Positions 24,491-63,114 of a stretch of DNA of 64,000 nt are shown one piece after another. This stretch comes from a bacterium. GTDB lineage: Bacteria; Patescibacteriota; Minisyncoccia; UBA6257; GWB1-50-10. Both the position numbers and the translations under genes were made by a program. The notes beneath the pieces were generated by a model. It saw only the letters and a list, made by a program, of their open reading frames with translations. It searched no databases and was not told the origin of the DNA. The stretch lies in NCBI GenBank assembly GCA_030647415.1, contig JAUSKB010000026.1, positions 74,894 to 138,893 of the forward strand, read 5' to 3'. The stretch's first letter is position 1. Each line of letters begins with the position of its first letter.

Positions 24491-24934
24491 ATGCTATTCC
24501 GCACCACATGGAGAGCCTACCTGCGACGCATTCGAGCATCGAGCGACGCCACAAAGCGGCGATGGATTGCCGTCGTGGGATTGGGCTCGGGAGGACTCGT
24601 CATCGCCCTCTGGGTCATCTACCTCTCCTCCACGCTGCCCGCCCGACTGGACAGTCGTTCGGGCGGGCCCACCCGGACGAATACGCCTCCGCTCGCGACC
24701 ACAACGGCGTCTGAATCGCCCCAGGAGCGAAGGGGGGATGTGTTTACGAACGGCGTCCGAGGCATCCGGGATATGATGGCAAAACAATGGCAGGGCGCAC
24801 GAAACACTATCGACAGTTCCTGGCAATCGCTGGGGGCGCTTATCACCGAGGGAAACGAATTCTCGGTGACGGGAACCACCACGCCCGCTTTGCCGGAATC
24901 GAGTGAGTCGAGCGAGCCACCGCACACACCATGA
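24491..24934 (+). CDS. hypothetical membrane protein
   Basis: 147 aa with one TM helix; overlaps the gyrA start by 4 nt. Confidence 0.4.
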
Positions 24935-27876
24935 CCACTGCAGAACCAAAGAAAACGCCCGGCGGCTCCATCGAGCCCCGCGAGATTGTGGACGAGCTCC
25001 GGCAGTCCTACCTATCGTACGCCATGTCGGTTATCGTCTCGCGCGCCATCCCGGACGTCCGTGACGGCTTGAAACCGGTGCAACGGCGCATCCTCTGGGC
25101 GATGTGGGACACCGGACTCACCCACAGCGCGAAGTTCAAAAAGTCCGCGAATGTGGTCGGCGAGGTGCTCGGCAAGTACCACCCGCACGGCGACGTTGCG
25201 GTCTACGACACCATGGCGCGTATGGCGCAGGACTTCTCGCTCCGCGCACCGCTCGTCGACGGCCAGGGAAATTGGGGGTGTTTTACTAAAGATACAAAAG
25301 TAAAACTCGCCGACGGTCGAAACGCGAGCTTTAGTGAACTCGTAGAAGAACACCGCCAGGGCAAGAAAAACTATACCTTTGCCGTTAATTCGGCTGGGCT
25401 CATTTCCATCGCGGAAATAAAAAATCCGCGCCTCACAAAAAAGAATGCAGAGCTCGTCAGGGTGATTTTGGACAATGGCGAGAAGATTCGTTGCACGCCG
25501 AATCACCGCTTTATGTTAAAAGACGGCTCCTACAAAGAGGCACACTACCTCACAAACGGGAATAGTCTTATGCCCCTATACGAGAAGTTGTCCACAAAAG
25601 AGGGCCGATTAAACAGCGACCCACGCCCGGTTTTATATGAACTAAATAAAAACCATAAAGTTGTTAGGGTTGAAAAGTTAGCGGAGCAGGAGGATGTTTA
25701 TGATTTAACGATTGATAAATATCATAATTTTGCGCTCGCGGCTGGTGTCTTTGTGCACAATTCGATCGACGGCGACAGCCCGGCGGCAATGCGTTATACT
25801 GAGGCTAGGCTTACAAAAGTCGCCGAGGAGCTCTTGACGGACATCGAGAAGGAGACGGTCGACTGGGGACCAAACTACGACAACTCCCGCGTGGAGCCGC
25901 TCGTCCTGCCGGGGAAGCTCCCGAACCTCATTGTGAACGGCGCGGTCGGCATCGCGGTCGGTATGGCAACCTCCATCCCGCCGCACAACCTCGGCGAGGT
26001 TATAGACGCCATCGCGTACCTTGCCGAGCACGGGGATGCCACGATTGAGGAGCTTATGCAGTTCATCCCGGGTCCCGACTTCCCGACGGGCGGCGTAATC
26101 TACGACACGCGGGCGATCGCCGAAGCCTACCGGACCGGCCGCGGCGCCATCGTCATGCGCGCCGTCGCCGTCATCGAGGAGCGGACGGCGCGAGGGCACC
26201 AGATCGTCGTCACCGAAATTCCCTACCAGGTGAACAAGTCGGACCTCGTCACCTCCATCGCCGAGCTCGTCACGGAGAAGCGAGTGGAGGGCATCCGGGA
26301 CCTCCGCGACGAATCCGATCGCGATGGCCTGCGAATCGTCATCGAGCTGAAAAGCGACGCGGCGCCGCAAAAGATTTTAAATCAGCTCTACAAGTACACC
26401 GAGCTCCAGAAGAGTTTCCACTCAAACCTCCTCGCATTGACCGGCGGACTCCAGCCGGAGGTGCTCTCCCTGAAGGATATCCTCGCCGCATACCTCGACC
26501 ACCGGAAGCTGGTCGTGAAGCGGCGAACAGAGTTTGACCTCCGAAAGGCGACGGAGCGGGCACATATCCTCGAGGGGCTCGTGAAAGCCTTGGACCACAT
26601 CGACCGGATCATCGAGACCATCAAGAAGTCCAAGGACCGCGAGGATGCCCAGCGGAACCTCATCGCGAAGTTCAAGTTCTCGGAGCTCCAGGCGAACGCC
26701 ATCCTCGAAATGAAGCTCGCCGCGCTCGCGGCGCTCGAACGCAAAAAGCTCGAAGATGAACTTACGGAAAAGCGGAATATCATCGAGGAGCTCACTGCGC
26801 TCCTCAAGAACCCGAAGAAGATGCTGGGGCTCATCGTCACGGAGCTCGGCAATCTCAAGGCCGCCTTCCCGAGCGAGCGGCGCACGAAGGTGGTTCCGCA
26901 CGGGCTCACGGAGTTCCGCGAGGAGGACCTGGTGCCGCAGGAGGAGGCAATCGTCACGCTCTCGGTGGACGGCTACATCAAACGGATGCCGCCCGATACC
27001 TTCCGGGCGCAACGGCGCGGCGGGAAGGGGCTCATCGGGTTCGATTTGAAGGACGAGGACCATATCCGACAGCTCATGGCGGCACGAACCCACGATAACT
27101 GCCTCTTTTTCACGGACCGGGGGAAGGTTTTCCAGACCAAGGTGTTCGAGATACCCGCCGCGGAGCGGGCGGCTAAAGGCAAACTCGTGCACAACTTCCT
27201 CGAAGTCCCACCGAACGAGCATATCACGGCGATGGTCGCCTACGGCGGATCGTCGAGCGGGTACCTCACCATGGTGACGCAGGGCGGAACCATCAAGAAA
27301 ACGCCGCTCAAGGACTTTGTGAGCGTCCGGCGGACGGGCATTATCGCCCTCAGGCTCCAGCCGAACGACATTCTTGAGTGGGCCCAGCTCTCCTCCGGCG
27401 GCGACGAGATGCTCCTCGTGACCTCCGCCGGTCAGGCGATCCGGTTCCGTGAAAAGGATGTCCGTCCAATGAGCCGCACCGCGGGCGGCACGCGCGCAAT
27501 CCGCCTGAAGCGAAAGGACCAGGTCGCCGGCGTCGGCATCATACCCAAGGAGGCCGGCGCCGCCGACCGGAAGGGGCTCCGCGTGGTCGCCGTCATGGCC
27601 CGCGGGTTCGCGAAGCAGACGCCGCTCTCGGATTACAAGGTACAGCACCGCGGCGGCGGCGGCATCAAGACCGCGAAGGTGACGGAGAAAACAGGGCCGG
27701 TGATCGCCGCGGCGATCGTCGGACCGGAGACGGAGGTTGTGCTCGCCTTCTCGAAAAAAGGCCAGGCATTGAAAACACCGCTCTCGAACGTCCGCATCGC
27801 GGGTCGCGCGACACAGGGCGTCCGCATTATGAACGTCGAGGCGGATGATGCGCTGATTGGGGTACTCTGTCTGTAG
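24931..27876 (+). CDS. gyrA: DNA gyrase subunit A, containing a mini-intein
   Basis: 981 aa; conserved GyrA blocks ([15 protein letters not shown]-terminal beta-pinwheel repeats); 161-aa insertion between GNWG and SIDGD. Confidence 0.95.
25279..25761 (+). mobile_element. mini-intein (161 aa, no homing-endonuclease domain) within gyrA
   Basis: Begins Cys ([13 protein letters not shown], block A), TPNH block B, ends VFVHN followed by Ser+1; DNA is markedly AT-rich relative to the flanking gyrA sequence. Confidence 0.8.
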
Positions 27877-29333: not shown

Positions 29334-29861
29334 ATGTTATACTTACCATTGATGAAATCCTATTTTGCGGTCTCTCTGCTTTTAGTTGGACTGGCTATTG
29401 CCATACCCGTATTCGCCGGCGTCCAAACTGCTAACGCACAAGGGAGCTGCGGCGGCGTGGGGCAACGTTGCTGCCAACCTGCCGAAGCACCCCACCAGTG
29501 CATTACCGCTCTCGTTTGCAGTAACTTCACAAGCCCCATCTGCGAGACCGGAATATGCGCGTGCAGGGGAGTCGCGCCGCCCCCACCAAACCCGAGCACC
29601 ATCACACTCATAAACCCCCTAAGCGGCACGTCCGACGTGCGCGGTCTCATCGAGCGGTTTGTCACCATCCTCCGCGATTTTGCGACGCCCATTGCGGTCC
29701 TCATGATTCTCTTTGGGGCGTTCCGAATCCTCACTGCCGCTGGGGACCCCGCGAAGTTCGAGACGGGGAAAAAGATACTCCTGTACACCGCCATAGGGTA
29801 TGCTATAATCTTTGTCGGGTGGGGAATCACCTCGATTATCGAGAGTCTGCTCTCTTCGTGA
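29334..29861 (+). CDS. VirB2/TrbC-like pilin-type protein with an N-terminal 8-Cys domain
   Basis: Signal peptide, Cys-rich domain, then two hydrophobic helices separated by AAGDPAKFETGKK. Confidence 0.45.
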   Translation: MLYLPLMKSYFAVSLLLVGLAIAIPVFAGVQTANAQGSCGGVGQRCCQPAEAPHQCITALVCSNFTSPICETGICACRGVAPPPPNPSTITLINPLSGTSDVRGLIERFVTILRDFATPIAVLMILFGAFRILTAAGDPAKFETGKKILLYTAIGYAIIFVGWGITSIIESLLSS

Positions 29862-29916
29862 TGATTCCTTATCACACTGTAAAGGTCGGTTTTCCTTCAC
29901 GGTTCAATCCTATCAC

Positions 29917-30279
29917 ATGAAACTATCAACATTCGGAAAGTTTGCTGCCGGTATTGTCTTGGCATCCGCTATCGCGACTCCGTTTGCGGTGCTCGCGCAG
30001 CCGGATCCGACACTCACCGACTTCTCGCTCTCTGGTATTTCAGGCATTTCGAAGCTCGGTGGCAAGATTGGGGGCTGGATGCTCGGCATCCTCCTGGTCC
30101 TCGCGGTCATCTTCATCCTCGCCGCGGCGTTCCTCTACCTGACCTCCGGCGGCGACGAGGCAAAGGTGGGAAAGGCGAAGAGCTACATTATCTACGCCAT
30201 CGTCGCGGTCGTCGTGGGCATCCTCGCGAAAACCATCATCACACTCGTCCAGAGTCTTGTTAACACCGCCGGAACCTAA
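29917..30279 (+). CDS. VirB2/TrbC-like pilin-type protein (paralog 2)
   Basis: Signal peptide; helix-SGGDEAKVGKAK-helix architecture. Confidence 0.45.
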   Translation: MKLSTFGKFAAGIVLASAIATPFAVLAQPDPTLTDFSLSGISGISKLGGKIGGWMLGILLVLAVIFILAAAFLYLTSGGDEAKVGKAKSYIIYAIVAVVVGILAKTIITLVQSLVNTAGT

Positions 30280-30281
30280 TT

Positions 30282-30644
30282 TTGTTAAACCTGTTTAAGG
30301 CACTCGGACCTACCATGAGACATGCAGTTCTTCGTGCTTTCGTTGCCGCTGCGGGTTTTCTTCCCGCGGCGGTTGCGTATGCGCGGGACTACCCCACGAT
30401 AACCAATTACAGCGACCTCATCCGCGTTATAAACACCGCGGCGGATTGGCTCTTCGGAATACTGCTTTCACTCGCGGTCATCTTCGTCATCTTCGCCGCC
30501 TACCGATTCCTGAACGCCGCCGGCGATCCGAAGTCGCTTGAGACCGCAAAGATGACGATTCTGTACGCCATCGTCGCCGTGGTGGTCGCCGTTCTCGCAA
30601 AGACACTCATCGGACTGGTCGACTCATTCTTCTCGTCCGTATAA
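30282..30644 (+). CDS. VirB2/TrbC-like pilin-type protein (paralog 3)
   Basis: Helix-NAAGDPKSLETAKM-helix architecture. Confidence 0.45.
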   Translation: MLNLFKALGPTMRHAVLRAFVAAAGFLPAAVAYARDYPTITNYSDLIRVINTAADWLFGILLSLAVIFVIFAAYRFLNAAGDPKSLETAKMTILYAIVAVVVAVLAKTLIGLVDSFFSSV

Positions 30645-45898: not shown

Positions 45899-46708
45899 AT
45901 GCGAGCACGAATCGGACAGCATTTTCTGAAAGACGCGAGTGTTGCTCGGCGTATTGTCTGCGCGCTCCCCATCGCCGAGCACGCGACAGTTATTGAGGTC
46001 GGGCCGGGGAAGGGCGCGCTTACCGCATTCCTCGCGGAGCGCGTGGGGGAGGTTCCCGAGGCGGAGCTCGTCTGTATTGAACGAGACCCTGCCCTTGCGG
46101 CGGCGCTTGCCGCTCAATCCCAATCGTGGCGAGGTGTGCTGCCCACCGTACACACCGGCGACGTGCGCACACTCCTCCGCGAGGTCGTCCGGAGCGTTCC
46201 CCGGACGCGGCGGTACGCCATCATCGGGAATCTGCCGTACTACCTCACGGGGCACCTCTTCCGAATCCTCGGCGAGCTGCCGCGCCTGCCTGAGGCGGCG
46301 GTCTTCATGGTGCAGCGGGAGGTCGCGGAGCGGCTTGCCGCCGTGCCGCCGTGCATGAACATGCTTGCGGCGAGCGTGCAGGCGTGGGCGAAACCCTCCA
46401 TCCTATTCCGTGTGCCACCATCCGCATTCTCGCCGAAACCGAGCGTGGAAAGCGCGGTGGTGTCGCTTGTCGCGGTAAGAACCACCCCGCCACCTGCAGA
46501 ATACTATCGGGCCGCCCGGACACTCTTTCGGCAACCACGGAAAACAATTTTGAATAACCTTGCGGCTGAAATCGGGCGCACGGACGCCGTGCGCATCCTC
46601 ACCGAAGCGGGGCTCAACCCATCGGACCGTCCGCAGACACTTTCACCGGACAAGATTCTTTTGCTATCAAAACACCCGCCGTTCACCGAAGCGGCGGGTG
46701 ATGTTTGA
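45899..46708 (+). CDS. rsmA: 16S rRNA (adenine1518/1519-N6)-dimethyltransferase RsmA/KsgA
   Basis: GQHFL and VIEVGPGKGALT motifs. Confidence 0.85.
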   Translation: MRARIGQHFLKDASVARRIVCALPIAEHATVIEVGPGKGALTAFLAERVGEVPEAELVCIERDPALAAALAAQSQSWRGVLPTVHTGDVRTLLREVVRSVPRTRRYAIIGNLPYYLTGHLFRILGELPRLPEAAVFMVQREVAERLAAVPPCMNMLAASVQAWAKPSILFRVPPSAFSPKPSVESAVVSLVAVRTTPPPAEYYRAARTLFRQPRKTILNNLAAEIGRTDAVRILTEAGLNPSDRPQTLSPDKILLLSKHPPFTEAAGDV

Positions 46709-51570: not shown

Positions 51571-53883
51571 ATGCGCACGAAACGAACGGTAAGCATCTTC
51601 CTCGCCGCCGCGCTCCTCACCGCGGGCGGGTTCTTTGCTGTAACTAATACTGCACACGCGCTGATGTACGGCAATAATTCTAATCCTATTAAGCAGTGGC
51701 TAGTAGGTACAGGCCTCGACATCCTCCAGGCGTTCGCTACCGGCATTTCGTACATCCTGAACTTCCTTGGGGGTCTCGCCTTCGCCTTCGGGAACATGCT
51801 GACCCAGACGATGTTGGCACTCAACTACCAGGTGCTCGACAGTTCGAACACCATCGTAACCGTCGGGTGGGGCATCACGCGGGATGTGGCGAACCTCGGC
51901 TTCGTCCTCCTCATTATCTTGGTCGCGCTCGCGACCATCGTCCGCTACCCCTCGGAGTACCAGGCGCAAAAGCTCCTGCCCCGCCTCATCGCCGCCGCCC
52001 TCCTTGTGAACTTCTCGATCGCCATCGTAACGCCGCTCATTGATTTTTCGGACACCTTGACGCAGAGCTTCGCATCGCGTATCGGTGGCGATGATTTGCC
52101 CGGCATTCCTGGGTCCGGATTCGTCGGGCGAATCTCAAATGCCTTCGGCCCCCATCGGCTTCTTATCCCCCCTGCGGGAGGTTTACCTGAACCGGTAGGT
52201 TTCAATACTTTTAGCAAGGCGTTCCTCACGACCGTCGGCGGGCTCTTTTTCAGCTTCATATTCACCTGGCTCGCCGCCCTCGTCATGCTCGCCATCGCCT
52301 TCATGCTCTTCCTCCGGTATGTGCACCTGACCTTCCTCCTCGCCATCGCGCCTATTGTCTGGCTCTTCTGGGTCTTCCCGGGGCTCGAGAAGCACTGGAG
52401 CACCTGGTGGAGCGATTTCCTCAAGTGGGTTTTCTTCGCGCCCGCGGTCATGTTCTTCATCTACCTCGCGGTTACGGCGATGGATGCTATGGGATCGATG
52501 CCTGTCGAGGGGCTCACGGGGTCGGACTTCTTTGAAACCTTTATTCTTTCGATCATCTCGCAGGGAACCCAGATGGCCGTCCTCGGCGCCTTCCTTGTCG
52601 GCTCGCTCATCGTCGGCCAGAAGTTCGGCATCGCCGGGGCGGGGGCGGCATTGAACATCGCAAAGGCGGCAAAAACGCAGGGGCTGAAGCTCGCGGGCCA
52701 GCGGGTGAAGCTCGCGGGGCGGGCGGCGGCGGGGAAGGCTAGTACGGTACTCAAGGGCGGTCTCGAAGAAAAGGGTTTGATGAAGTACCCGAAGAAGGGG
52801 TTGAATCTCATGGGCCGTGGCACCTCGTTCGTGCTCGGCGGTGGTAAAAAGTTAGATGAGGCATTAAAGGTAAAGGACACTGATTCGGGTTTCAAGAAGC
52901 TTGGCAAGCGTTTTGCGGGTGGTGTTCTTGGCGTCACTGGCGGACGCGCCCTCTTGAAGGGTGCGGGTGGGCTTGAGAAAACACTCACTACCGCCTCCGG
53001 CCGCGACGTGAAGGTGGACTCGGTCGGCGGCGCGATGTTCAAGACCGTGAAGGGGGAGTTCCTGAAAGAGATGGGCTTTGAACAGGAAAAGCCTGAGAAG
53101 ACGACGGACGATCATGTGAAGGATCTGAAGGATGTTGTGAAACAGAAAAAAGCATTGAAAGACAAGGGCGCGCTCACGCCAGAATCAGAGAAGGAGTGGG
53201 ATAAGAAGATCGAGCGGGCGAAGGGGATGGTCCGCAACTCGCTCGAGCGGCCAGGGACCCCAGAGGGGTTGGACAGGCAAATCGAGCAGCTGAAGAGCAA
53301 GCAGGCGGAATTCTACGACCCGAAGAATGGCCTCGATGGCAGCGTATTCGACGACCTCATTAAGGAAAGGGTGATTGAGCGGGATCGGATCATAGAACGC
53401 GAGGGCAGGAAATCCGACGCGACACGCGAGGTTGAGGCGAAAATAGGCGAGCTGAACGGAGGGCGAATCGCCGCGCTGAAGGCGGGGGACCCGGAGGTCA
53501 CCGTCAAAACAAAACAGACGCAACCGGACGGCACCGAAGTGGAGGTTGAGCGGCAGCAGAAGTTGAGTTCGCTGTTTGATGAACAGATCGTGGCCGCGGA
53601 AAAAATCCGAACCGCCCTATTCGACGTCGACGAGCGACTGCGAAAGAACGAGCCGTGGAAGGACCAACAGCTCCAAATGGGGCTTGAAAAACTTCGAGAC
53701 AACATTACGGGCTTGAACAAGGGAATCACCGGTCTCTCCAGGGTCGTTGACAACACGAAAAACGCCGCGTTAGTGAAGCCGGGGTTGATCCAATGGGAAC
53801 CGTTTAAACAAACAGAAGAGAAGGCTAGCGGCGGTGCGAATAAGAAAGGAGATGGTGGCACCGTAGACACCGACACCTCGTAA
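51571..53883 (+). CDS. VirB6/TrbL-like polytopic membrane protein with a long K/E/G-rich C-terminal tail
   Basis: 770 aa; signal peptide, at least 6 TM helices over the first 400 aa, then a hydrophilic repetitive tail. Confidence 0.5.
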   Translation: MRTKRTVSIFLAAALLTAGGFFAVTNTAHALMYGNNSNPIKQWLVGTGLDILQAFATGISYILNFLGGLAFAFGNMLTQTMLALNYQVLDSSNTIVTVGWGITRDVANLGFVLLIILVALATIVRYPSEYQAQKLLPRLIAAALLVNFSIAIVTPLIDFSDTLTQSFASRIGGDDLPGIPGSGFVGRISNAFGPHRLLIPPAGGLPEPVGFNTFSKAFLTTVGGLFFSFIFTWLAALVMLAIAFMLFLRYVHLTFLLAIAPIVWLFWVFPGLEKHWSTWWSDFLKWVFFAPAVMFFIYLAVTAMDAMGSMPVEGLTGSDFFETFILSIISQGTQMAVLGAFLVGSLIVGQKFGIAGAGAALNIAKAAKTQGLKLAGQRVKLAGRAAAGKASTVLKGGLEEKGLMKYPKKGLNLMGRGTSFVLGGGKKLDEALKVKDTDSGFKKLGKRFAGGVLGVTGGRALLKGAGGLEKTLTTASGRDVKVDSVGGAMFKTVKGEFLKEMGFEQEKPEKTTDDHVKDLKDVVKQKKALKDKGALTPESEKEWDKKIERAKGMVRNSLERPGTPEGLDRQIEQLKSKQAEFYDPKNGLDGSVFDDLIKERVIERDRIIEREGRKSDATREVEAKIGELNGGRIAALKAGDPEVTVKTKQTQPDGTEVEVERQQKLSSLFDEQIVAAEKIRTALFDVDERLRKNEPWKDQQLQMGLEKLRDNITGLNKGITGLSRVVDNTKNAALVKPGLIQWEPFKQTEEKASGGANKKGDGGTVDTDTS

Positions 53884-54067: not shown

Positions 54068-55072
54068 ATGAACCTCTCGAATATAACTTTTGAGCTGCTC
54101 TCCGAACGGTACGAGGAGATACCGGAACGGTTTCGGGAGCTCCTCGAGTCACCCGGCACAAAAACAACACTCGTGCGCATCGGGGCGCAACACGCGCTTG
54201 ACCACGAACGGCAAACACTCCTTGAGGCGCTGGTCGGTCTTGTCTTCACCGGTTTCCTCTCCCCGGATGACCTCGCGGGGGAGTTTGTCGACCGCCTCTT
54301 CCTGAACTTCGTCCACGCCCGCGCGCTCGCCCGCGAGGTGGACGAGACCTTCTTCGCGCCGCACCGCCGCGACCTCGTTCGCGTCTACAACCCCGTGGGC
54401 GGGGTACCGCAGGGCCCAACCGTCCGGAGTGCGGAACGACCTATGATTGGATTGCCTTCACAAGTAGGAAAGACGATTTCACTTGAATCCATCGGCGCTT
54501 CAGGCGGTAGGGAACAAAAGCTTCCCATTAACGAGGTTGCGGCGCCGCTCGTGATTCTCGGCTCCAGCTCCCCCACCCTCCGCAAACCGATTATTCCGAA
54601 CCGCCCGCCGGAACGCCTGTTTGCCAGCCAGGCAGGCCTGCCTACCCATCCGACCGAGTTATCCGGGCGAGCCGGACAAACGGTTTCGGAGAAGCCGGTG
54701 TACCACTCACCCTTTTCCTTCCGGTTCCCGTTCCGCTCACCGCAGGCGGCGCGTACCCCGCTGGGCGACTCCACGGGACCGACCGCGACCGTCCGATTGC
54801 CCGGCAGTGCGGCACCAGCGCAGAAGAAGGATGGGCTTCATATTGTCCACTATGCGGAAACACGCGGGAGACTCGGCCCGCCGCTATCAACCGGAAAGGG
54901 GGGGGTAGTGAACCTGGACCAGCTGGGGGCGCAGCAAAGAAAAGAGACAAGAGAAAAAGGACAAGAGACGCCCATCGCACCGACAACCGACAACCGACAA
55001 CCGACAACCATCCCGAAACCACAGCCGAAGATCGATGGGAACACCATAGACCTCCGGGCAAATAAACTCTAA
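54068..55072 (+). CDS. hypothetical Pro-rich protein containing an in-frame variant of the 28-bp repeat
   Basis: 334 aa; starts MNL, identical 5' end to the 28020 gene; PTHPTELSGRAGQT is encoded by the repeat at 54641-54672. Confidence 0.5.
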   Translation: MNLSNITFELLSERYEEIPERFRELLESPGTKTTLVRIGAQHALDHERQTLLEALVGLVFTGFLSPDDLAGEFVDRLFLNFVHARALAREVDETFFAPHRRDLVRVYNPVGGVPQGPTVRSAERPMIGLPSQVGKTISLESIGASGGREQKLPINEVAAPLVILGSSSPTLRKPIIPNRPPERLFASQAGLPTHPTELSGRAGQTVSEKPVYHSPFSFRFPFRSPQAARTPLGDSTGPTATVRLPGSAAPAQKKDGLHIVHYAETRGRLGPPLSTGKGGVVNLDQLGAQQRKETREKGQETPIAPTTDNRQPTTIPKPQPKIDGNTIDLRANKL

Positions 55073-55129: not shown

Positions 55130-55495
55130 ATGGAACCGAGCGTGGGCTTGAAACGGTATGATTTGGAGGCGCGAACGCTTCAATTTACAAGGGATGTCAT
55201 TTCGTTCGTTTCCGCCCTTCCCCGGAGTATTGCCAATATTGAAATCATCAAACAGCTCATCCGGGCGACTGGTTCGGTGGGAGCGAATTATATAGAAGCG
55301 AATGAGTCCGTAAGCAGAAAGGACTTTCTCTTACGAGTTAAGATTTCCAAAAAAGAGTCGCGAGAGGCAATATACTGGTTGGAGCTCGTACAATGCTCAA
55401 ATGAGCAATGTGAAGTTAGGAGGCGTGAATTGATCCGAGAAGCGACCGAGCTCATGAAAATTCTCGGTTCAATCGTCGAAAAATCATCTCGGTGA
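55130..55495 (+). CDS. four-helix-bundle protein (TIGR02436 / 23S rRNA intervening-sequence protein; Avd-like)
   Basis: 121 aa; RATGSVGANYIEANESVSRKDFLLRVKISKKESREAIYWLEL matches the family core; lower GC than neighbours. Confidence 0.7.
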   Translation: MEPSVGLKRYDLEARTLQFTRDVISFVSALPRSIANIEIIKQLIRATGSVGANYIEANESVSRKDFLLRVKISKKESREAIYWLELVQCSNEQCEVRRRELIREATELMKILGSIVEKSSR

Positions 55496-55515: not shown

Positions 55516-55580
55516 CCTGTTTCGGATTTGAGATTTGGAATTTGTTTAGGGTTTAGGGTTTCGAATTTAGAATTTATCTG
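55516..55580. repeat. Family C repeat, reverse arm C2 (GTTTAGGGTTTAGGGTTTCGAATTTAGAATTT)
   Basis: Reverse complement of the C1 motifs. Confidence 0.8.
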
Positions 55581-55581
55581 T

Positions 55582-56079
55582 ATGAATTTTCAGGTCCCCC
55601 AATTCATCTCGGAAAAGGCCCACATCATCGGGCCGCTCACCTTCGCCCAGCTCGGCTACCTCATGGGCGCGGGCTTTATCGCGTTCCTTTTCTTCTCATT
55701 TTTCACGCCGTTCGTCGCGGGCTCGTTTTCTGCGGTGTTTGTCGGGGTCGCGCTCGCGCTCGCGCTCGGAAAGTTCAATGGGGTGAGTATTGCATCCATC
55801 CTTGTCGGCGCGGTCGGGTACCTCTGGAAGCCACGGGTGTACACCTGGCAACGGACATTTGCCACACAGACCTTTGACGCCTCAAGCGTAGATAAAATAG
55901 AGGCGATGCGGCGGAAGATGGGCGTCGAGGAAAAACTCAAGGCGATTGCGCTTTCGGTCACCACCGGAAAGATCTTCGCGCCAAAGGCGCCGGAGGTCGC
56001 CGCTGATGCCCAGCGATTCCAAATGGTGAGCTACCTGACCGGTGAAAAGAAGCTCGCGAAGAGAATCGACTACAGGTAG
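55582..56079 (+). CDS. small membrane protein, possibly VirB3-like (by position upstream of virB4)
   Basis: 166 aa from the internal ATG; 2-3 TM helices; matches the VirB3-VirB4 gene order. Confidence 0.3.
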   Translation: MNFQVPQFISEKAHIIGPLTFAQLGYLMGAGFIAFLFFSFFTPFVAGSFSAVFVGVALALALGKFNGVSIASILVGAVGYLWKPRVYTWQRTFATQTFDASSVDKIEAMRRKMGVEEKLKAIALSVTTGKIFAPKAPEVAADAQRFQMVSYLTGEKKLAKRIDYR

Positions 56080-56089
56080 AATAAGGTAA

Positions 56090-56228
56090 GCTCTAAATCC
56101 GAAACCCTAAATCCTAAACAAATTCGAAATTCCAAACACACTCATAAATGATGATGAAACATGATGCCATTTCGAATTTCGTGCTTGGAATTTGTTTAGA
56201 GTTTCGATATTAGGATTTAGAATTTCTA
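56090..56228. repeat. Family C palindromic element C3 (forward and reverse arms, no cargo)
   Basis: GCTCTAAATCCGAAACCCTAAATCCTAAACAAATTCGAAATTCCAA ... TTGGAATTTGTTTAGAGTTTCGATATTAGGATTTAGAATTTC. Confidence 0.8.
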
Positions 56229-56893
56229 TGGAAAAGGGTCTCCCCACACAATCATTTGTCGCCGTCAAAGAGGTTCGAAACGGCATCGTCCACCTGAAAG
56301 ACGGCGGCCTGCGCCAGCTCCTCATCGTCTCCGGCGTGAACTTCGACCTGAAGGCGGAGGAGGAGCAGGCACTTATTCTGAACACCTTCCAAAATTTCCT
56401 GAACACGCTCGACTTCACGATGCAGTGCTTCATCCATTCCCGGAAGGTGAATGTGGACACCTACCTGGACCGCATGCGCTCGCGGCAGCTCGAGGAACCG
56501 AATGAGCTCTTGAAGATCCAGATTGCCGAGTATATCGACTTCATCGCCGCGTTCGTGGACCAGAACGCCATCATATCAAAAACCTTCTTTGTGGTGGTCC
56601 CGTACGATCCGCCAGTGACGTCCGGAGCGGCGACCAAGGGCGTGCTTGGCTTCTTCAAGAAACGCGAGGCGGCGACGGTCATCGCGGACGAGGCGGCAAC
56701 GCTCCAGGAGCACTTGAAGCAGCTCGAACAGCGGGTGACACAGGCGACCGAGGGCCTCCTCCAGATCGGGCTACGGGCAGTCCGGCTCCGCGACGACGAG
56801 ACCATCGAGTTGTTCTACAACCTCTACAATCCGGAACTGGTCGAGAAGAAGGGGCTCGACATAGCAAAGCCAGACAAAGCCGGAAAATCCTAA
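56228..56893 (+). CDS. virB4: VirB4/ConE-family ATPase, N-terminal fragment (split gene)
   Basis: 222 aa; IVHLKDGGLRQLLIVSGVNFDLKAEEEQALILNTFQNFLNTLDFTMQ fits the CagE/TrbE/VirB4 N-terminal domain pattern; 222+587 aa equals a normal VirB4 length. Confidence 0.5.
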   Translation: MEKGLPTQSFVAVKEVRNGIVHLKDGGLRQLLIVSGVNFDLKAEEEQALILNTFQNFLNTLDFTMQCFIHSRKVNVDTYLDRMRSRQLEEPNELLKIQIAEYIDFIAAFVDQNAIISKTFFVVVPYDPPVTSGAATKGVLGFFKKREAATVIADEAATLQEHLKQLEQRVTQATEGLLQIGLRAVRLRDDETIELFYNLYNPELVEKKGLDIAKPDKAGKS

Positions 56894-57038: not shown

Positions 57039-58802
57039 ATGAAGTTCTCCATCCCTAAAGCCTACACCCCCTCTCCCGACGACCTGCCGAGCGTCATCGC
57101 GCCTGCGGGTGTCGAGGTGAATCCGTCGCACCTGAAGCTTGGCGACTACCTCGTGAAGACCTTCTTCATCTTCACCTACCCGCGGTACCTCACCTCGAGC
57201 TGGTTCTCGCCCATCATCAATCTGACGGAGATGATGGAGATCTCGATCTTCTTCCACCCGATGGACACCGCGACGGCGCTCCGGGACCTTCGGAAGAAGG
57301 TGACGCAAATCGAGGCGGAGCTTTCCGAAAAGGAGGAGAAGGGGCTGGTGCGGGACCCGCAGCTCGAGACGGCGTACCAGGACGTGGAATCACTCCGCGA
57401 CTCGCTCCTCCAGGCGCGCGAGAAGCTGTTCTCGGTCGCTGTCTACATCACTCTTTACGGGAGGAACGCGGACGACCTCGAGAAGGTCGCGCAGGCGACG
57501 CAATCCCTCCTTGAGTCAAAGCTGGTGTATATGAAACCGGCGCTCTTCCGCCAAATCGAGGGATTTACCTCCATGCTTCCCATTGGACGCGACGTGCTGG
57601 AAATTCGGACCCCCTTGAACTCCGGCCCCGCCTCCTCGCTCTTCCCCTTCGTCTCGCCGGACCTCTCGTCGGACAAGGGAATCCTGTACGGCGTGAACCT
57701 CCACAACAACTCGCTTGTCATCTTCGACCGCTTCTCGCTCGAGAACGCGAACTCGGTCATCTTCGCAAAATCCGGTGCTGGAAAATCGTTCACCGCGAAG
57801 CTCCAAATCCTCCGGTCGCTCATGGTCGGCACGAACGTCATTGTCATCGACCCGGAGAACGAGTACCAGAACCTTGCGAACGCCATCGGCGGCAGCTACT
57901 TCAAGATCTCTCTCACCTCCCCGAACCATGTGAACCCGTTCGACATCCCCCTTATGCCCGCGGGGGAGGAGCCGGCAGACGTCTTCAAGTCGCACGTCCT
58001 GAATCTCACTGGCCTCGTGAAGCTCATGCTGGGCGCCATCACGCCGGAGGAGGACTCACTCCTCGACCGTGTTATTACCGAGACCTATGCCTCCCGCGAC
58101 ATCACCGCGGCGACCTTCGGCGAAGCCAAGGAAGAGCTGAATCCACCCCTCCTCGAGGACCTGCAAATTATTCTCCAGAACACCGAGGGCGGACAGGGAA
58201 TGTCCCAGCGCCTTGAGAAGTTCGTGCACGGCTCGTACGCCGGGTTCACGAACGCGCCGACGAACGTCGACATCAAGAACCGGCTCATCGTCTTTTCGAT
58301 GCGCGACCTCGAGGAGGAGCTCCGGCCGGTCGCGATGTACATCATCACGAACTTCATCTGGAACCTCATCCGCTCGGAGTTGAAACCCCGGCTCCTCATG
58401 ATCGACGAGGCGTGGATCATGATGAAGTATAAGGATTCGGCGCAGTTTCTCTTCGGCCTCGTGAAGCGCGCCCGAAAGTACTACCTCGGCATCACCACCA
58501 TCTCCCAGGAGGTTGAGGATTTCCTGAAATCTGACTATGGCCGCCCCATCATCACGAACTCCTCCATTCAGCTCCTGATGAAGCAGTCGCCGACCTCCAT
58601 CGAGGCGGTCGCGAAGGCGTTCGACCTGACCGAGGGGGAGCGGGAGCTCCTCCTTGAGGCGGGGATCGGCGAGGGGCTCTTCTTCGCGGGATTGAAACAC
58701 GTCGCCATTAAGGTGGTCGCCTCATACACCGAGGACCAGATTATTACTACCAACCCGGAACAGCTGCTGGAGGCGAAGGGGCTCGGGGGACAGAAGACAT
58801 AA
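57039..58802 (+). CDS. virB4: VirB4/TrbE/ConE-family type IV secretion ATPase, C-terminal portion
   Basis: 587 aa; Walker A FAKSGAGKSFT at about residue 247, Walker B LLMIDEAW; placing Walker A at residue 247 of a full-length protein would be unusually far N-terminal, consistent with a missing N-terminus. Confidence 0.85.
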   Translation: MKFSIPKAYTPSPDDLPSVIAPAGVEVNPSHLKLGDYLVKTFFIFTYPRYLTSSWFSPIINLTEMMEISIFFHPMDTATALRDLRKKVTQIEAELSEKEEKGLVRDPQLETAYQDVESLRDSLLQAREKLFSVAVYITLYGRNADDLEKVAQATQSLLESKLVYMKPALFRQIEGFTSMLPIGRDVLEIRTPLNSGPASSLFPFVSPDLSSDKGILYGVNLHNNSLVIFDRFSLENANSVIFAKSGAGKSFTAKLQILRSLMVGTNVIVIDPENEYQNLANAIGGSYFKISLTSPNHVNPFDIPLMPAGEEPADVFKSHVLNLTGLVKLMLGAITPEEDSLLDRVITETYASRDITAATFGEAKEELNPPLLEDLQIILQNTEGGQGMSQRLEKFVHGSYAGFTNAPTNVDIKNRLIVFSMRDLEEELRPVAMYIITNFIWNLIRSELKPRLLMIDEAWIMMKYKDSAQFLFGLVKRARKYYLGITTISQEVEDFLKSDYGRPIITNSSIQLLMKQSPTSIEAVAKAFDLTEGERELLLEAGIGEGLFFAGLKHVAIKVVASYTEDQIITTNPEQLLEAKGLGGQKT

Positions 58803-59461: not shown

Positions 59462-60151
59462 ATGGATTTCGCGCGCCACGTCGTATCGCTCGCTATTCTC
59501 GCGGGGATCCTCGGAACACTTACGTTCATTCCCGCACGAGCCCAAGAGCCACCACAAGCGTCCGGGTTGAATCTCATCCTCACCTGGGAGGCGGAGGTTT
59601 TCTCGCCGCCCAGCTACCGCGGCAGGAGTATCCCCCCGCCCGGCGGAGCGGCGGTGGTGATGCTTGCGGCGACGGACGGCCGGGGGGCGCTCACTGACCT
59701 CTCACCGTACCGGATCACCTGGTCGCGCGGCGGAAAGTTCGTGGAGGGCGGGACGGGCCTCACCACCCGCTCCCTCACCCTCGGCGCGAGCCCAAACCGG
59801 GAACTGGTGCGCGCGTCGGTCTACGGCTCGACCGGAGACCTCGTCGCGGAGGTGTCAATGATTATCCCCACGGCAAAGCCACGCATCGTGCTCTCCCCAG
59901 AACCGGCGGCTGAAAATCCAGGGTTCATTCTCCTCCGCGCCCTCCTCCTCTCATTCAGCGTCCCTGATATCGAGGACATCACCGTGTCTTGGGACGTTCC
60001 CGGGGGGGCGCCGGGCGACTCGTTCGACACCTTTTTCGTTCCCGCGGTTCCCAACCTATCCGTTGTGGGATCTGTCACCGCGCGGAACCCTCAACGGGTG
60101 CTCGAGTATGCGAAGCAGTTCATTAAATTGCCCTATGCGACATTCGAGTAA
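59462..60151 (+). CDS. secreted hypothetical protein (T4SS-like cluster)
   Basis: 229 aa with a signal peptide. Confidence 0.45.
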   Translation: MDFARHVVSLAILAGILGTLTFIPARAQEPPQASGLNLILTWEAEVFSPPSYRGRSIPPPGGAAVVMLAATDGRGALTDLSPYRITWSRGGKFVEGGTGLTTRSLTLGASPNRELVRASVYGSTGDLVAEVSMIIPTAKPRIVLSPEPAAENPGFILLRALLLSFSVPDIEDITVSWDVPGGAPGDSFDTFFVPAVPNLSVVGSVTARNPQRVLEYAKQFIKLPYATFE

Positions 60152-60596
60152 AATTTTCTGGCTCGCGCTCCCCGCGCTCCTTCTAGTCGCATCGCAGGTC
60201 GAGGCGCGCGCGGGCTTCCTCGGCGCCTCATCCACCGAGGATTTCATCTCAAAGCTCTACACCTACAGCATCGGGTTGGGCGGCCTCCTCGCAGTCGGCG
60301 CGATCGTCACGGGCGGCATCCTCATCGCGACCTCCGGGGTCGTGAACAAGCAGCAGCTCGGCCGCGACCTCATCGCCGGGGCGCTCTGGGGGCTCGCCCT
60401 CCTCTTAGGCGCCTATTTCCTTCTAAAGACCGTAAACCCGCAACTCGTTAAATTGAAAGTGCCCGGCATCACACTCTGCACTGGCACCCAAACACCGGAG
60501 CGCGACGGGTGTCTCAAGGCCTGCGTTCCGCGCGAGAACAAGATCCCCGGCGTCGAGTGCTACCCGACGGCGGCAACCACGACTCCTCCCATCTAA
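60135..60596 (+). CDS. VirB2-like pilin-type protein with a C-terminal 4-Cys tail
   Basis: Signal peptide; helix-VVNKQQLGRD-helix architecture; start chosen at the internal ATG overlapping the previous gene. Confidence 0.4.
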   Translation: MRHSSKIFWLALPALLLVASQVEARAGFLGASSTEDFISKLYTYSIGLGGLLAVGAIVTGGILIATSGVVNKQQLGRDLIAGALWGLALLLGAYFLLKTVNPQLVKLKVPGITLCTGTQTPERDGCLKACVPRENKIPGVECYPTAATTTPPI

Positions 60597-60716: not shown

Positions 60717-61927
60717 TGCGCCTCTGGATAAAAATCGCTCTCTTCTCGATCCTGCTCGTTGTAGTCGGCGTTGGTGTCTACTTCGCGCTCTCAAATCGCG
60801 GACCGGCTATCGTCGAACTGCCTCCGGGCGGGAGGGGTCCCGGCGGCTTTCCCATCCCGTATGCGAGCGGCACTCCGGGAGCTGGCGGATCTGGTGGAGG
60901 CAGCACTACATCAACCGTGCCAGAGAGACCGGAAACGCCCGCTCCAGCCGAAGTCAGCGTTACGCCGATCTCCGACCACCCGGTCTTCGACTTCTGGATG
61001 AACCCGGCGACCAGTGAGGTGTTCTACCTCGCGGCGGACGGTAGGGTCTTCCGGGAACGCGACGGTTTAGATGAGGCGCTCTCAAGCGAGGAGTTATATA
61101 ATCTCATCTCGGTCGAGGTATCCACCGACCGGCAGCGTGTGCTCGTATCGCTCGGTGCCACACATGCTCCAGAGTGGCGTATATTCGACATACTCGACCG
61201 CGCCTGGCGCCCCCTGCCGCCGGGAATTGTCGCCGCCACCTGGGGGTCCAGACCGGACCGCATCATTGCCCAGGTGAGCCGCCCCGCCGAGTCGCGGAAG
61301 CTCGTCGAGGTGGACCTCTCCCGCCCCTCGTTTCCCGAGACGGCGCTCGTGGCGAACTTCGAGCTATTGAACGTCTCGCTCCACGCCGTGCGGCAAAACA
61401 CCCTCCTCATAACCGAACAACCGTCAGAGAAAACGAACGGTCGGGTCTGGAACTTCGATCTCACGAGGAAGACGCTTTCCCTGCTCTTCACTCCCTCGCC
61501 GGGGCTTATGGTATCCATTCCGAGGAACGGCTCGGTGGGGTTTCTCTCTATGTCGCCTCGGGAGTTCCAGATCTTTTCGTTCGGCGCAGGCATCCAGCCG
61601 CTCGCCGCGGTTCCCTTCAGGACCTTCCCGCAAAAGTGCGCCCTCGCCGCGAGCACCACCCTCTGCTTCGCCCCCGTCCGTTTCACCGGGCTTCTCTCGT
61701 CGCTCTCCCTCCCCGACGACTGGCTCTCCGGCGCGGCAATCGCGACGGACCAGCTTTTCCGCACGAACCTCACGGACGGCGAGACGGACCTCATGTTCTC
61801 GAGTGGCGAGACGGACCTCCCGGCACTCGACGCGGTCCGCGTCGAGGCGGCTGCGAATGACCTCTATGTTTTAAACCGGCGCGACCGGACGCTCTACCGC
61901 GTCACCATGCCCGCACAAACCCCATGA
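60716..61927 (+). CDS. hypothetical membrane-anchored protein (G-rich linker, possible beta-propeller domain)
   Basis: 403 aa; TM anchor; GGSGGGSTTS linker. Confidence 0.45.
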   Translation: MRLWIKIALFSILLVVVGVGVYFALSNRGPAIVELPPGGRGPGGFPIPYASGTPGAGGSGGGSTTSTVPERPETPAPAEVSVTPISDHPVFDFWMNPATSEVFYLAADGRVFRERDGLDEALSSEELYNLISVEVSTDRQRVLVSLGATHAPEWRIFDILDRAWRPLPPGIVAATWGSRPDRIIAQVSRPAESRKLVEVDLSRPSFPETALVANFELLNVSLHAVRQNTLLITEQPSEKTNGRVWNFDLTRKTLSLLFTPSPGLMVSIPRNGSVGFLSMSPREFQIFSFGAGIQPLAAVPFRTFPQKCALAASTTLCFAPVRFTGLLSSLSLPDDWLSGAAIATDQLFRTNLTDGETDLMFSSGETDLPALDAVRVEAAANDLYVLNRRDRTLYRVTMPAQTP

Positions 61928-62961
61928 AGCGCATCGGTATTATATTTGTGCTTTCTGCCGCGCTTGGTGTCTCACTTGCGCCCGCCGTCGCCATCGCGCG
62001 CTCGCTCACGAACCCCATCTGGGATGGGCGGTACCCGGTCTCCTGCAATGTGGGGGGATCACCGTGTACCTTCTGCGACCTCCTGAAGGTGGGCGCGAAC
62101 ATTATTGACACCCTGACCCTGCTCGTCATTCCCATCGGCGCCGCAGTCATCGTCTACGGCGGCTTCCGCATCATGACGGCCGGGAGCTCGCCAACCGGTC
62201 TTTCAACTGGAAAAGAGGCGATGAAGATGGCGGGTATCGGCATCGCCATCTCCCTCTCCGGGTGGCTCATTGTGAACACCGTCTTCTCCCTCCTCTCGGG
62301 CGGCGGGTCCCTGACCGCCATCCAGTGCCCCGCGGGCGATATATTCACCAGGGTTCCCTACATACCGGTGGGCGCGGACTGCAGCAGAATCAAGCTCTCA
62401 ATGTCAGGCGATACCCCTCTCGGCACCGTCTGGACGGTGCAGGATGCCACCGCGCGCGGCTACTCACCGACTACCTGGTGCAAACCTGAAAAAGTGGGTT
62501 CAAACCTGATTACAATTCAGAGTGAAATCTCCTGGCTTCAAGAAACAACAAGCCGCAGTATTACACCAAACTCAGCCTTTCGCCCAAAGTCATACCAGAA
62601 ACACCTCCGAGAGGTATGGGATGCGAAGCAACTCCTCACCGAGATTCCCACGCTCACCGCAAACTGTGCCGCCGACGCAGCAATCGTAAACTCGGAGTTC
62701 TCACGCCACGGACTCAATTCGAGAGTGTCTGATGAGGGTAGCAGCCCCCACGAGCGCGGCTACGGCGTGGACCTTTCGATCGGCGGATGCGGAAACGCAA
62801 ATTTTACAGGACAGTGCTCAGAGCTCTACGACAGAATTGATACAATCCTAAAGAGCACGCAGGACAACCATATACCAAAACTCAAGTGGAACAAGATTCG
62901 GGGAGACGAGGTACACTTCGACCTTCTCCCGACCCAGCGGCAGGAAAACAGGGGGTGCTAG
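61924..62961 (+). CDS. fusion protein: VirB2-like pilin domain + peptidase M15 (VanY/LAS-type) cell-wall hydrolase domain
   Basis: N-terminus: signal peptide, helix-TAGSSPTGLSTGKEAMKM-helix; C-terminus: SPHERGYGVDL matches the LAS metallopeptidase SxHxxGxAxD motif. Confidence 0.5.
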   Translation: MKRIGIIFVLSAALGVSLAPAVAIARSLTNPIWDGRYPVSCNVGGSPCTFCDLLKVGANIIDTLTLLVIPIGAAVIVYGGFRIMTAGSSPTGLSTGKEAMKMAGIGIAISLSGWLIVNTVFSLLSGGGSLTAIQCPAGDIFTRVPYIPVGADCSRIKLSMSGDTPLGTVWTVQDATARGYSPTTWCKPEKVGSNLITIQSEISWLQETTSRSITPNSAFRPKSYQKHLREVWDAKQLLTEIPTLTANCAADAAIVNSEFSRHGLNSRVSDEGSSPHERGYGVDLSIGGCGNANFTGQCSELYDRIDTILKSTQDNHIPKLKWNKIRGDEVHFDLLPTQRQENRGC

Positions 62962-63114
62962 CGGCATAACTCACAATAAACAACCTACAACAAACAACGG
63001 AATACACTGAACCGCCCTCATGGGGGCGATCCGTGTTGTCGGCCACTACGTTTTCGGTTGAGGCTCCGACTCTGTGTGTGGCAGATATCAGAGTTGTTGG
63101 TTGTAGGTTGTCGA

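Follow-up and report, generated by a model that had tools for sequence, protein, structure and literature searches.

A VirB2-like pilin hairpin joined to a predicted LAS/M15 peptidase in a type IV secretion operon of Patescibacteria

Introduction

What opens the cell wall for the type IV secretion systems (T4SSs) of Patescibacteria? VirB2-like pilins are common near virB4 in these bacteria, and most Patescibacteria with VirB2 homologues are without VirB1, whose place may be taken by other enzymes (Quinonero-Coronel et al., 2025, PMC12102498). In Candidatus (Ca.) Southlakia epibionticum, the sole species with transposon sequencing (Tn-seq), the epibiotic lifestyle requires the T4SS and its VirB2-like pilins (PMC10633639), and a 2025 review of T4SSs stresses the unexplained essential pilin arrays (PMC12857230). 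Here we analyze one gene, at positions 61924 to 62961 of a stretch of 64,000 nucleotides (nt) from contig JAUSKB010000026.1 (GenBank assembly GCA_030647415.1, positions 74,894 to 138,893 of the forward strand). This whole stretch, hereafter the window, is part of a Patescibacteria-type chromosome close to the replication origin. A first reading of the DNA, hereafter the original prediction, took the gene for a pilin-like domain fused to a peptidoglycan peptidase of the M15/LAS family. Sequence comparison and fold prediction allow a secure assignment of its product as a VirB2-like pilin hairpin joined to a LAS/M15 peptidase with intact catalytic residues, and the gene is linked to a T4SS.

Results

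The fusion gene and its close homologues

The open reading frame (ORF) at 61924-62961 is a real gene and not a chance ORF. Its product is 100% identical to MDO8470198.1, encoded on a 145-kb contig, where the NCBI label is merely "MAG: pilin [bacterium]". Besides this identical entry, only three further close homologues are found among 5.8 billion proteins, with identities of 65%, 62% and 37% and E-values of 1e-142, 5e-136 and 5e-50. Compared with the closest homologous gene, the ratio of nonsynonymous to synonymous substitution rates (dN/dS) is 0.17 for the N-terminal domain and 0.22 for the C-terminal domain, and both halves are therefore under purifying selection. The start of the gene shares four nucleotides (ATGA) with the stop of the ORF upstream, an overlap that suggests translational coupling of the two. 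Searches with the fusion protein gave no match in the PDB by direct sequence comparison, none in NCBIfam or PHROGs, and none by tblastn against phage genomes.

A VirB2-type hairpin in the N-terminal half

The original prediction had seen in the N-terminus a signal peptide and the two-helix architecture of the other VirB2-like proteins of the window, and our analysis agrees. The AlphaFold model of the full protein, built from a 43-sequence alignment (mean pLDDT 86.4), has helices at amino acids (aa) 2-23, 50-85 and 90-124 and a confident C-terminal domain. A signal peptide followed by two hydrophobic hairpin helices is supported by this model, by hydropathy, and by the alignment of the hairpin with the plain pilins of the window; a signal peptide is likewise present in nearly all fused homologues. 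The hairpin also weakly matches VirB2 of 8cue.

Pfam T4SS_pilin (PF18895) matches aa 59-120 with an E-value of 4.4e-5, but the score of 23.9 bits is just below the gathering cut-off of 26.6 bits. The precomputed database annotation of MDO8470198.1 lists PF18895.6. Three plain pilin genes of the window (29334-29861, 29812-30279 and 30282-30644) stand in tandem and are all over the T4SS_pilin cut-off; the first and third of them are found by phmmer with the N-terminal domain of the fusion. A word-indexed search with the N-terminal domain alone returned a single protein.

In VirB2 and TraA, the basic loop marks the cytoplasmic side of the membrane. The inter-helix loop of the fusion has three lysine or arginine residues against one aspartate or glutamate, R82, K97 and K101 belong to the same basic region, and all 10 cysteines of the protein lie outside the transmembrane (TM) helices. 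By analogy with the VirB2/TraA topology, the basic loop of the fusion would be cytoplasmic and its C-terminal domain would lie outside.

A LAS/M15-type peptidase in the C-terminal half

The sequence SPHERGYGVDL is found at aa 274-284 (nt 62743-62775) of the fusion, and the original prediction had read it as the zinc-binding SxHxxGxAxD motif of M15/LAS peptidases. This reading stands, since the motif aligns with VanY-B: in a profile-to-PDB alignment, SspHtrGtAvD falls on TSEHQLGLAVD of VanY-B (5hnm/6a6a) and gDpvHF falls on NEPWHY. From this alignment, H276, D283 and H331 form the predicted zinc triad, and D328 is the counterpart of the catalytic glutamate. Over the 152 representatives for which residue conservation was computed, H276 is conserved in 100%; R220, Y224, H262, G279 and D283 in 99%; H331 in 98%; Q225 and C248 in 97%; H227 in 96%; and D328 in 92%. 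Nine residues (S217, R220, Y224, Q225, H276, G279, D283, D328 and H331) are invariant in the 43 fused members. Conservation and the VanY-B alignment together thus point to a zinc ligand triad of the form H-x6-D plus a distal histidine, with an acidic base three residues before the third histidine (D328) and an arginine upstream (R220).

The family assignment of the focal protein comes by way of its relatives. With Pfam VanY (PF02557) the focal protein itself scores 13.4 bits (E=0.069), under the gathering score of 25 bits, so that a VanY domain search succeeds for some of the relatives and falls short for the focal protein. We built a profile from four close C-terminal domains and searched 1.84 billion representatives exhaustively, which gave 489 relatives with E-values up to 1e-3, 67 of them with E<=1e-10. 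Among the top 98 relatives, 63 match Pfam VanY (E<=0.01, best E=1.4e-10) and 46 match T4SS_pilin. One homologue, P0007, exceeds both gathering scores (T4SS_pilin 41.8 bits, VanY 28.7 bits), and P0065 (28.2 bits) and P0059 (25.3 bits) are also over the VanY cut-off. As judged from these sequences, the VanY link is transitive, via profile relatives, and the hits used for it have E-values of 1e-8 to 1e-25.

Fold comparison leads to the same family. When the full-length model was searched with Foldseek, LAS enzymes ranked at the top with E-values of merely 0.1-1, and for this reason the C-terminal domain was modeled alone (104 sequences, pLDDT 88.6, pTM 0.83). The top 30 PDB matches of this model are all LAS enzymes (VanXYc, LdcB, VanY-B, Ply500, LysB4, VanXYg, DacB, ChiX, VanX, LysECD7 and the RB49 peptidase); below them rank the Streptomyces DD-peptidase and, after it, Hedgehog N-domains. 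In a viral structure library, every named match is an M15/M23 peptidase, an endolysin or a similar virion-associated peptidase. The predicted structure is thus of the Hedgehog/DD-peptidase fold, and the predicted His/Asp ligands are conserved in sequence, in line with the M15/LAS domain that had been proposed for the C-terminus.

Among the M15/LAS peptidases matched in fold are VanY, VanXY and LdcB/DacB (M15B) as well as the phage L-Ala-D-Glu endopeptidases Ply500, LysB4 and ChiX (M15C). Shared with them are SxHxxGxAxD, a third histidine on a later strand, the acidic residue three positions before it, and the upstream arginine. The differences are an identity of merely 12-18%, the score of the focal protein under the Pfam VanY cut-off, and a predicted general base that is aspartate (DxxH) where VanX, VanY and LdcB have glutamate. 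M15C endopeptidases use aspartate as general base. The focal domain also has near-invariant H227, C248, E258 and H262, extra helices, and the pilin fusion itself.

Other enzyme classes are not indicated. No lytic transglycosylase or cysteine-peptidase domain (SLT, CHAP, NlpC/P60) is matched by Pfam in the focal protein. A C3-like ADP-ribosyltransferase was considered and rejected: the sole hint was a 52-residue match of a 4-sequence profile to 1ojq (E=0.22), and there is no ADP-ribosyltransferase among the fold matches.

A separate observation concerns the segment before the catalytic core (aa 135-190). In most members it reads C-P-x3-L-x-P-x-T-D-x2-A-x2-M-E-x-G, followed later by V-x-W-x-S. 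The segment, which lies between linker and core, has diverged in the focal subfamily; its function may be that of a pro-segment, a lid or an element for substrate binding.

The fusion recurs with a fixed domain order

We compared 153 proteins, comprising the profile-search representatives and the close homologues, clustered at 50% identity. Both domains are present in 52 of the 153, so that the fusion is found in no fewer than 52 clusters at the 50% identity level. The pilin is N-terminal to the peptidase in all 52, and nearly all of these proteins carry a signal peptide along with two TM helices. The pilin-peptidase fusion is recurrent, and its domain order is fixed. In homologues, the last TM helix is separated from the SxYR motif by 50 to 288 residues, a stretch that includes the N-terminal part of the C-terminal domain and is rich in T, L, A, S, G and P. 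One homologue has an fn3 domain inserted there. In databases, the fused proteins are labeled "pilin" or "hypothetical", with PF18895 alone precomputed. When the 43-sequence fusion alignment was used in a word-indexed search, 25 proteins came back, all of them likewise labeled pilin or hypothetical.

T4SS_pilin modules are also found with other C-terminal cargo (P0172, P0005 and P0165-P0170), namely PG_binding_1, a Cys-rich domain, or extensions of 300-500 aa that match no Pfam family. Modularity thus seems to be a general theme among the VirB2-type pilins of these bacteria.

Members of the peptidase subfamily that have no pilin include short secreted proteins. A tblastn search of plasmids gave one match, a secreted 352-aa protein without a pilin (L010:3269-4327) on the Ralstonia pseudosolanacearum megaplasmid NZ_CP051174.1. 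This match speaks against a restriction of the peptidase domain to the candidate phyla radiation (CPR), and it has no bearing on the fusion. This Ralstonia protein has the CP..LTPITDP segment that most members share upstream of the core, and a 294-aa secreted protein comes next after it; the PLSDB table for NZ_CP051174.1, which is incomplete, lists no gene at the position of the match.

The fusion gene is linked to virB4

In the window, the T4SS cluster runs in the order 770-aa multi-TM protein, PrgI, TraC-like protein, VirB4, four small genes and the fusion, and then come convergent jag and yidC (Table 1). The fusion is co-encoded with virB4 in the window and in three further loci, L001, L006 and L007; in these further loci it stands 2-4 genes downstream of virB4. 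L001 (37% identity to the fusion protein) has the same order, with a TrbL_3 protein at the VirB6 position, a 395-aa gene where the window has the 403-aa upstream gene (equivalent by position), and jag-yidC-(rnpA)-dnaA after the fusion. In L006, from Ca. Paceibacterota (32%), the order is kept; an additional gene follows the fusion, and dnaA lies some 3 kb downstream. The contig of L007 (27%) begins just before VirB4 and continues with VirB4, two small genes, the fusion, one more gene and jag-yidC-rnpA-dnaA. The closest homologue, in L002 (65%), covers the side from the fusion to dnaA, as its contig stops about 1.9 kb upstream of the fusion, short of virB4. The link of the fusion to virB4 and the T4SS is secure. 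A related-locus search with a 4-sequence alignment gave two GTDB loci.

VirB4 is split into two genes in L001 and L006 as well as in the window; the split is thus conserved and does not reflect a frameshift. Among the T4SS-cluster ORFs that were scanned, there is no Pfam-recognizable wall hydrolase besides the fusion.

A different setting is found in L005, from Ca. Yanofskybacteria (28%). Here a pilin-fn3-VanY protein is encoded after GyrA and a solute-binding protein, with another pilin next in line, and the fusion occupies the position where the window has its three plain pilins. As a side observation, GyrA of the window (24931-27876) has an intein (Intein_splicing PF14890, aa 125-277), and GyrA of L005 is without one.

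Table 1. Coordinates of the fusion gene, its domains and motifs, and neighboring features of the window
Feature	Position in window (nt)	Strand	Remarks
Pilin-M15 fusion gene	61924..62961	+	ATG start, 345 aa plus stop; NCBI MDO8470198.1
Signal peptide	61924..62001	+	aa 1-26: MKR, hydrophobic core, AIA/RS; model helix aa 2-23; putative cleavage site
Mature N-terminal extracytoplasmic segment (predicted)	62002..62070	+	aa 27-49; Cys41, Cys48, Cys51 (PCTFCD)
VirB2-type helical hairpin	62071..62295	+	helices aa 50-85 and 90-124; basic loop aa 86-89
Linker, Gly/Ser/Pro, low-confidence	62296..62373	+	aa 125-150, pLDDT 56-64
LAS/M15 (VanY-like) peptidase domain	62374..62958	+	aa 151-345
Catalytic core of peptidase domain	62557-62925	+	about aa 212-334
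Motif 1, S217-A-F-R220-P-K-S-Y224-Q225	62572..62598	+	family consensus SxYRPxxYQ, conserved Arg
Motif 2, S274-P-H276-E-R-G279-Y-G-V-D283	62743..62772	+	SxHxxGxAxD; H276 and D283 predicted zinc ligands
Motif 3, D328-E-V-H331	62905..62916	+	DxxH; H331 predicted third zinc ligand, D328 at VanY catalytic Glu position
Hyper-diverged mosaic segment of peptidase module	62386..62872	+	relative to closest genome L002 (2405-2930)
KsgA	45899-46708		
770-aa multi-TM protein	51571..53883	+	no Pfam match; VirB6-like by position of the TrbL_3 gene in L001 only
23S rRNA-intervening-sequence protein gene	55130-55495		PF05635, E=2e-13
PrgI (VirB3-like)	55528..56079	+	
TraC-like N-terminal part of VirB4, separate gene	56192..56893	+	
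VirB4-type ATPase	57039..58802	+	P-loop_TraG, AAA_10
Weak T4SS_pilin-like gene, same operon	60063..60596	+	E=5e-4
Upstream gene, 403 aa	60716..61927	+	N-terminal TM, no Pfam family

The peptidase module is a mosaic between close genomes

Between the window and L002, nucleotide identity is 81-83% in the pilin half of the gene and in the flanks, whereas nt 62386-62872, which make up most of the peptidase module, give no blastn alignment at all. Identity at third codon positions decreases from about 0.8 to about 0.3 and is regained over the last 30 codons. This comparison covers one pair (the window and L002) and one outgroup (L011). Because synonymous sites in the segment are saturated too, the pattern is most simply explained by segment replacement through recombination with a distant allele and not just by fast amino-acid change. 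These sequences suggest cassette-like recombination inside the fusion gene, at nt 62386-62872.

Other features of the locus

The gene for the 23S rRNA-intervening-sequence protein lies inside the T4SS cluster, between a 334-aa ORF and PrgI and just 3' of GTTGT-type repeats. The intergenic region between the convergent fusion and jag genes (62962-63114) has a 19-nt inverted repeat with arms 94 nt apart, ACAACCTACAACAAACAAC at 62980-62998 and GTTGTTGGTTGTAGGTTGT at 63093-63111; the predicted RNA fold of this region has an energy of -57.4 kcal/mol (z=-3.7). Related GTTGTNGGTTGT repeats occur at 54983-55012. Rfam families, a consensus terminator and a promoter were sought in this intergenic region downstream of the fusion gene, and none was found.

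Discussion

A candidate wall enzyme for the secretion machine

What, then, does the fusion do? On balance, we think it probable that it is a T4SS-dedicated wall-remodeling peptidase, tethered to the membrane or to a pilus, which acts as a functional analogue of VirB1 without being a member of its family. We infer the topology, the zinc binding, the substrate and the wall that is targeted (own or host) in the scheme that follows. The signal peptide would be removed, and the hairpin would sit in the membrane with its short basic loop in the cytoplasm and both termini outside. With both hairpin termini outside, the peptidase would hang in the zone of the cell wall. The C-terminal domain would thus be extracytoplasmic and cut peptidoglycan stem peptides: H276, D283 and H331 would bind zinc, D328 would serve as general base, and R220 would stabilize the intermediate. 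The peptide bond hydrolyzed may be D-Ala-D-Ala, one of the L,D-carboxypeptidase type, or one of the L-Ala-D-Glu endopeptidase type. As the last and, to judge from the overlap, translationally coupled gene of a T4SS operon beside the replication origin, the fusion may encode the wall enzyme of that machine and stand in for VirB1, PrgK or TcpG. The pilin module would hold the peptidase at the secretion site, where the wall would be loosened for passage of the channel or the pilus.

Several observations weigh against this model. The fold statistics are modest, with best E-values of 2.8e-3 (PDB) and 1.1e-3 (viral), none at or below 1e-3, and TM-scores of 0.35-0.5; we therefore regard the domain as a divergent LAS member with extra helices. 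The focal protein is under the gathering scores of both T4SS_pilin and VanY. The fused homologue of L005 lies outside a T4SS cluster, in an array of GyrA, solute-binding protein and pilin genes. A mosaic, strongly diverged peptidase module between close genomes would be unusual for an enzyme that acts on its own wall only. Finally, an RHS-repeat protein and a giant protein of 3012 aa have a C-terminal domain of this peptidase subfamily, which is also found in the secreted Ralstonia protein, and these occurrences point to offensive use.

The last of these points bear on a bolder alternative, in which the fusion is a minor or tip subunit of a T4SS pilus and its peptidase cuts the wall of a host or prey cell for penetration or attachment. 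We regard this as possible, though on the doubtful side. Since VirB2-type pilins have their termini on the outer face of the filament, the pilus surface would display the peptidase, and the N-terminal domain is a bona fide T4SS_pilin relative. The 50-288 residues between TM helix and catalytic motif, once with fn3, are in keeping with such a display, as are the pilin modules that bear other cargo (PG_binding_1, Cys-rich domains and extensions of 300-500 aa). An offensive role would also fit the RHS and giant proteins that carry the same subfamily as cargo at their C-terminus, the VanY-like domains that the lipocone paper notes as cargo of polymorphic toxins (PMC12419801), the fast divergence of the mosaic module against its well-conserved flanks, and the one fused gene that stands in a variable pilin array (L005). 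Patescibacterial T4SSs are moreover without relaxase and essential for epibiotic growth (PMC12102498, PMC10633639). However, no pilus has been demonstrated for these T4SSs, and there is no known precedent for a 23-kDa domain on a VirB2-type subunit. Beside the fusion there is no immunity-like gene, jag being downstream, and in most loci examined the gene closes the machinery operon or stands close to its end, outside the pilin arrays. A more specific version, in which the fusion drills through the host wall as part of a T4SS pilus and its catalytic module is exchanged by recombination to track hosts, we consider unlikely.

The fold matches also allow more modest roles. LdcB, DacB and VanY are among the closest folds, and many relatives have no pilin fusion, which would suit a housekeeping D,D- or L,D-carboxypeptidase (LdcB/DacB-like) that trims the stem peptides of its own wall, the pilin hairpin being a mere anchor and the T4SS a neighbor by chance. 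This seems improbable to us, because the linkage to virB4 is kept down to 27% identity, the fusion gene is apparently translationally coupled in the operon, and domain order and pilin partner are constant in every one of the 52 fusions; fast mosaic divergence would also be atypical, and close homologues are few (four within 37% identity among the 5.8 billion proteins). Nor do all members of the LAS fold act as enzymes. Hedgehog N-domains are among the fold matches and T4SS_pilin fused to PG_binding_1 exists, so that a non-catalytic module might bind peptidoglycan or act as an adhesin, like Hedgehog N-domains, and tether the pilin or the T4SS to the wall. Against this stand the zinc-binding and catalytic residues, all conserved at 92-100% across the 152 representatives, and a dN/dS of about 0.17 in the core, and we hold such a role to be highly improbable.

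Relation to known systems

Like VirB1, PrgK, TraG(pIP501), TcpG and CwlT, which are presumed to open the wall locally (PMC12102498), the fusion is encoded in a T4SS operon, and the wall hydrolases of Gram-positive T4SSs are membrane-anchored and extracytoplasmic, as we propose for the fusion. VirB1 is a lytic transglycosylase, however, and T4SS hydrolases have SLT, CHAP, NlpC/P60 or LytM domains, in contrast to the predicted M15 zinc peptidase of the fusion. The anchor differs as well, a pilin hairpin instead of the single TM helix of T4SS hydrolases, and no sequence relationship was found. With the VirB2-TrbC pilins of Patescibacteria (PF18895), the fusion shares the signal peptide, the two-helix hairpin, the virB4 cluster and plain paralogues in the genome. 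Whereas VirB2 pilins are small stand-alone subunits (PMC12102498, PMC12857230), the fusion adds a linker of about 25 residues and an enzyme domain of about 195 residues.

A pilin that bears a functional domain has a parallel in Streptococcus sanguinis, whose PilB and PilC are modular type IV pilins with a C-terminal functional domain that is displayed by the filament. Type IV pilins are unrelated to the VirB2 superfamily, and the modules of PilB and PilC are adhesive, not enzymatic.

The nearest counterpart that we found described is SEML1_0007 of Ca. Southlakia epibionticum ML1, a protein of 1113 aa with a Hedgehog/DD-peptidase-fold domain at 951-1105 (Wang et al., 2023, PMC10633639, supplementary tables). 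It adjoins virB4 in a locus beside dnaN/recF near the origin and is scored as essential in Tn-seq (PMC10633639). By this description, SEML1_0007 resembles the fusion as a protein with a LAS-type fold in a Patescibacterial T4SS locus near the origin, but unlike the fusion it has no listed T4SS_pilin domain. The original prediction held that the arrangement was undescribed. This applies to the fusion, since in the literature searched we found no description of a pilin or VirB2 domain fused to VanY or a carboxypeptidase in CPR/Patescibacteria, and the survey of Patescibacterial T4SSs makes no mention of VanY or M15 (PMC12102498); it does not extend to a non-fused Hedgehog/DD-peptidase-fold protein beside virB4, which was known (PMC10633639). 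The novelty lies in the pilin fusion and its wide spread; both of its parts are known, as are T4SS-linked wall hydrolases, among them a LAS-fold protein of a Saccharibacterial locus.

Implications

Patescibacteria (CPR) account for a large part of bacterial diversity, and their lifestyle is one of attachment to other cells. A pilin recurrently fused to a predicted intact M15 peptidase, in an operon with virB4, is a specific candidate for the wall-cutting activity that seems to be missing from these systems. It has escaped attention in annotation pipelines, which overlook the enzyme domain and assign the label "pilin" or "hypothetical". The fusion also gives a testable idea of where the wall would be cut, at the membrane or at the pilus. 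If the pilus-borne version were true, this would be the first enzyme-bearing T4SS pilin, and it would offer a concrete mechanism for host breaching by ultrasmall episymbionts and for the essential T4SS and pilin genes.

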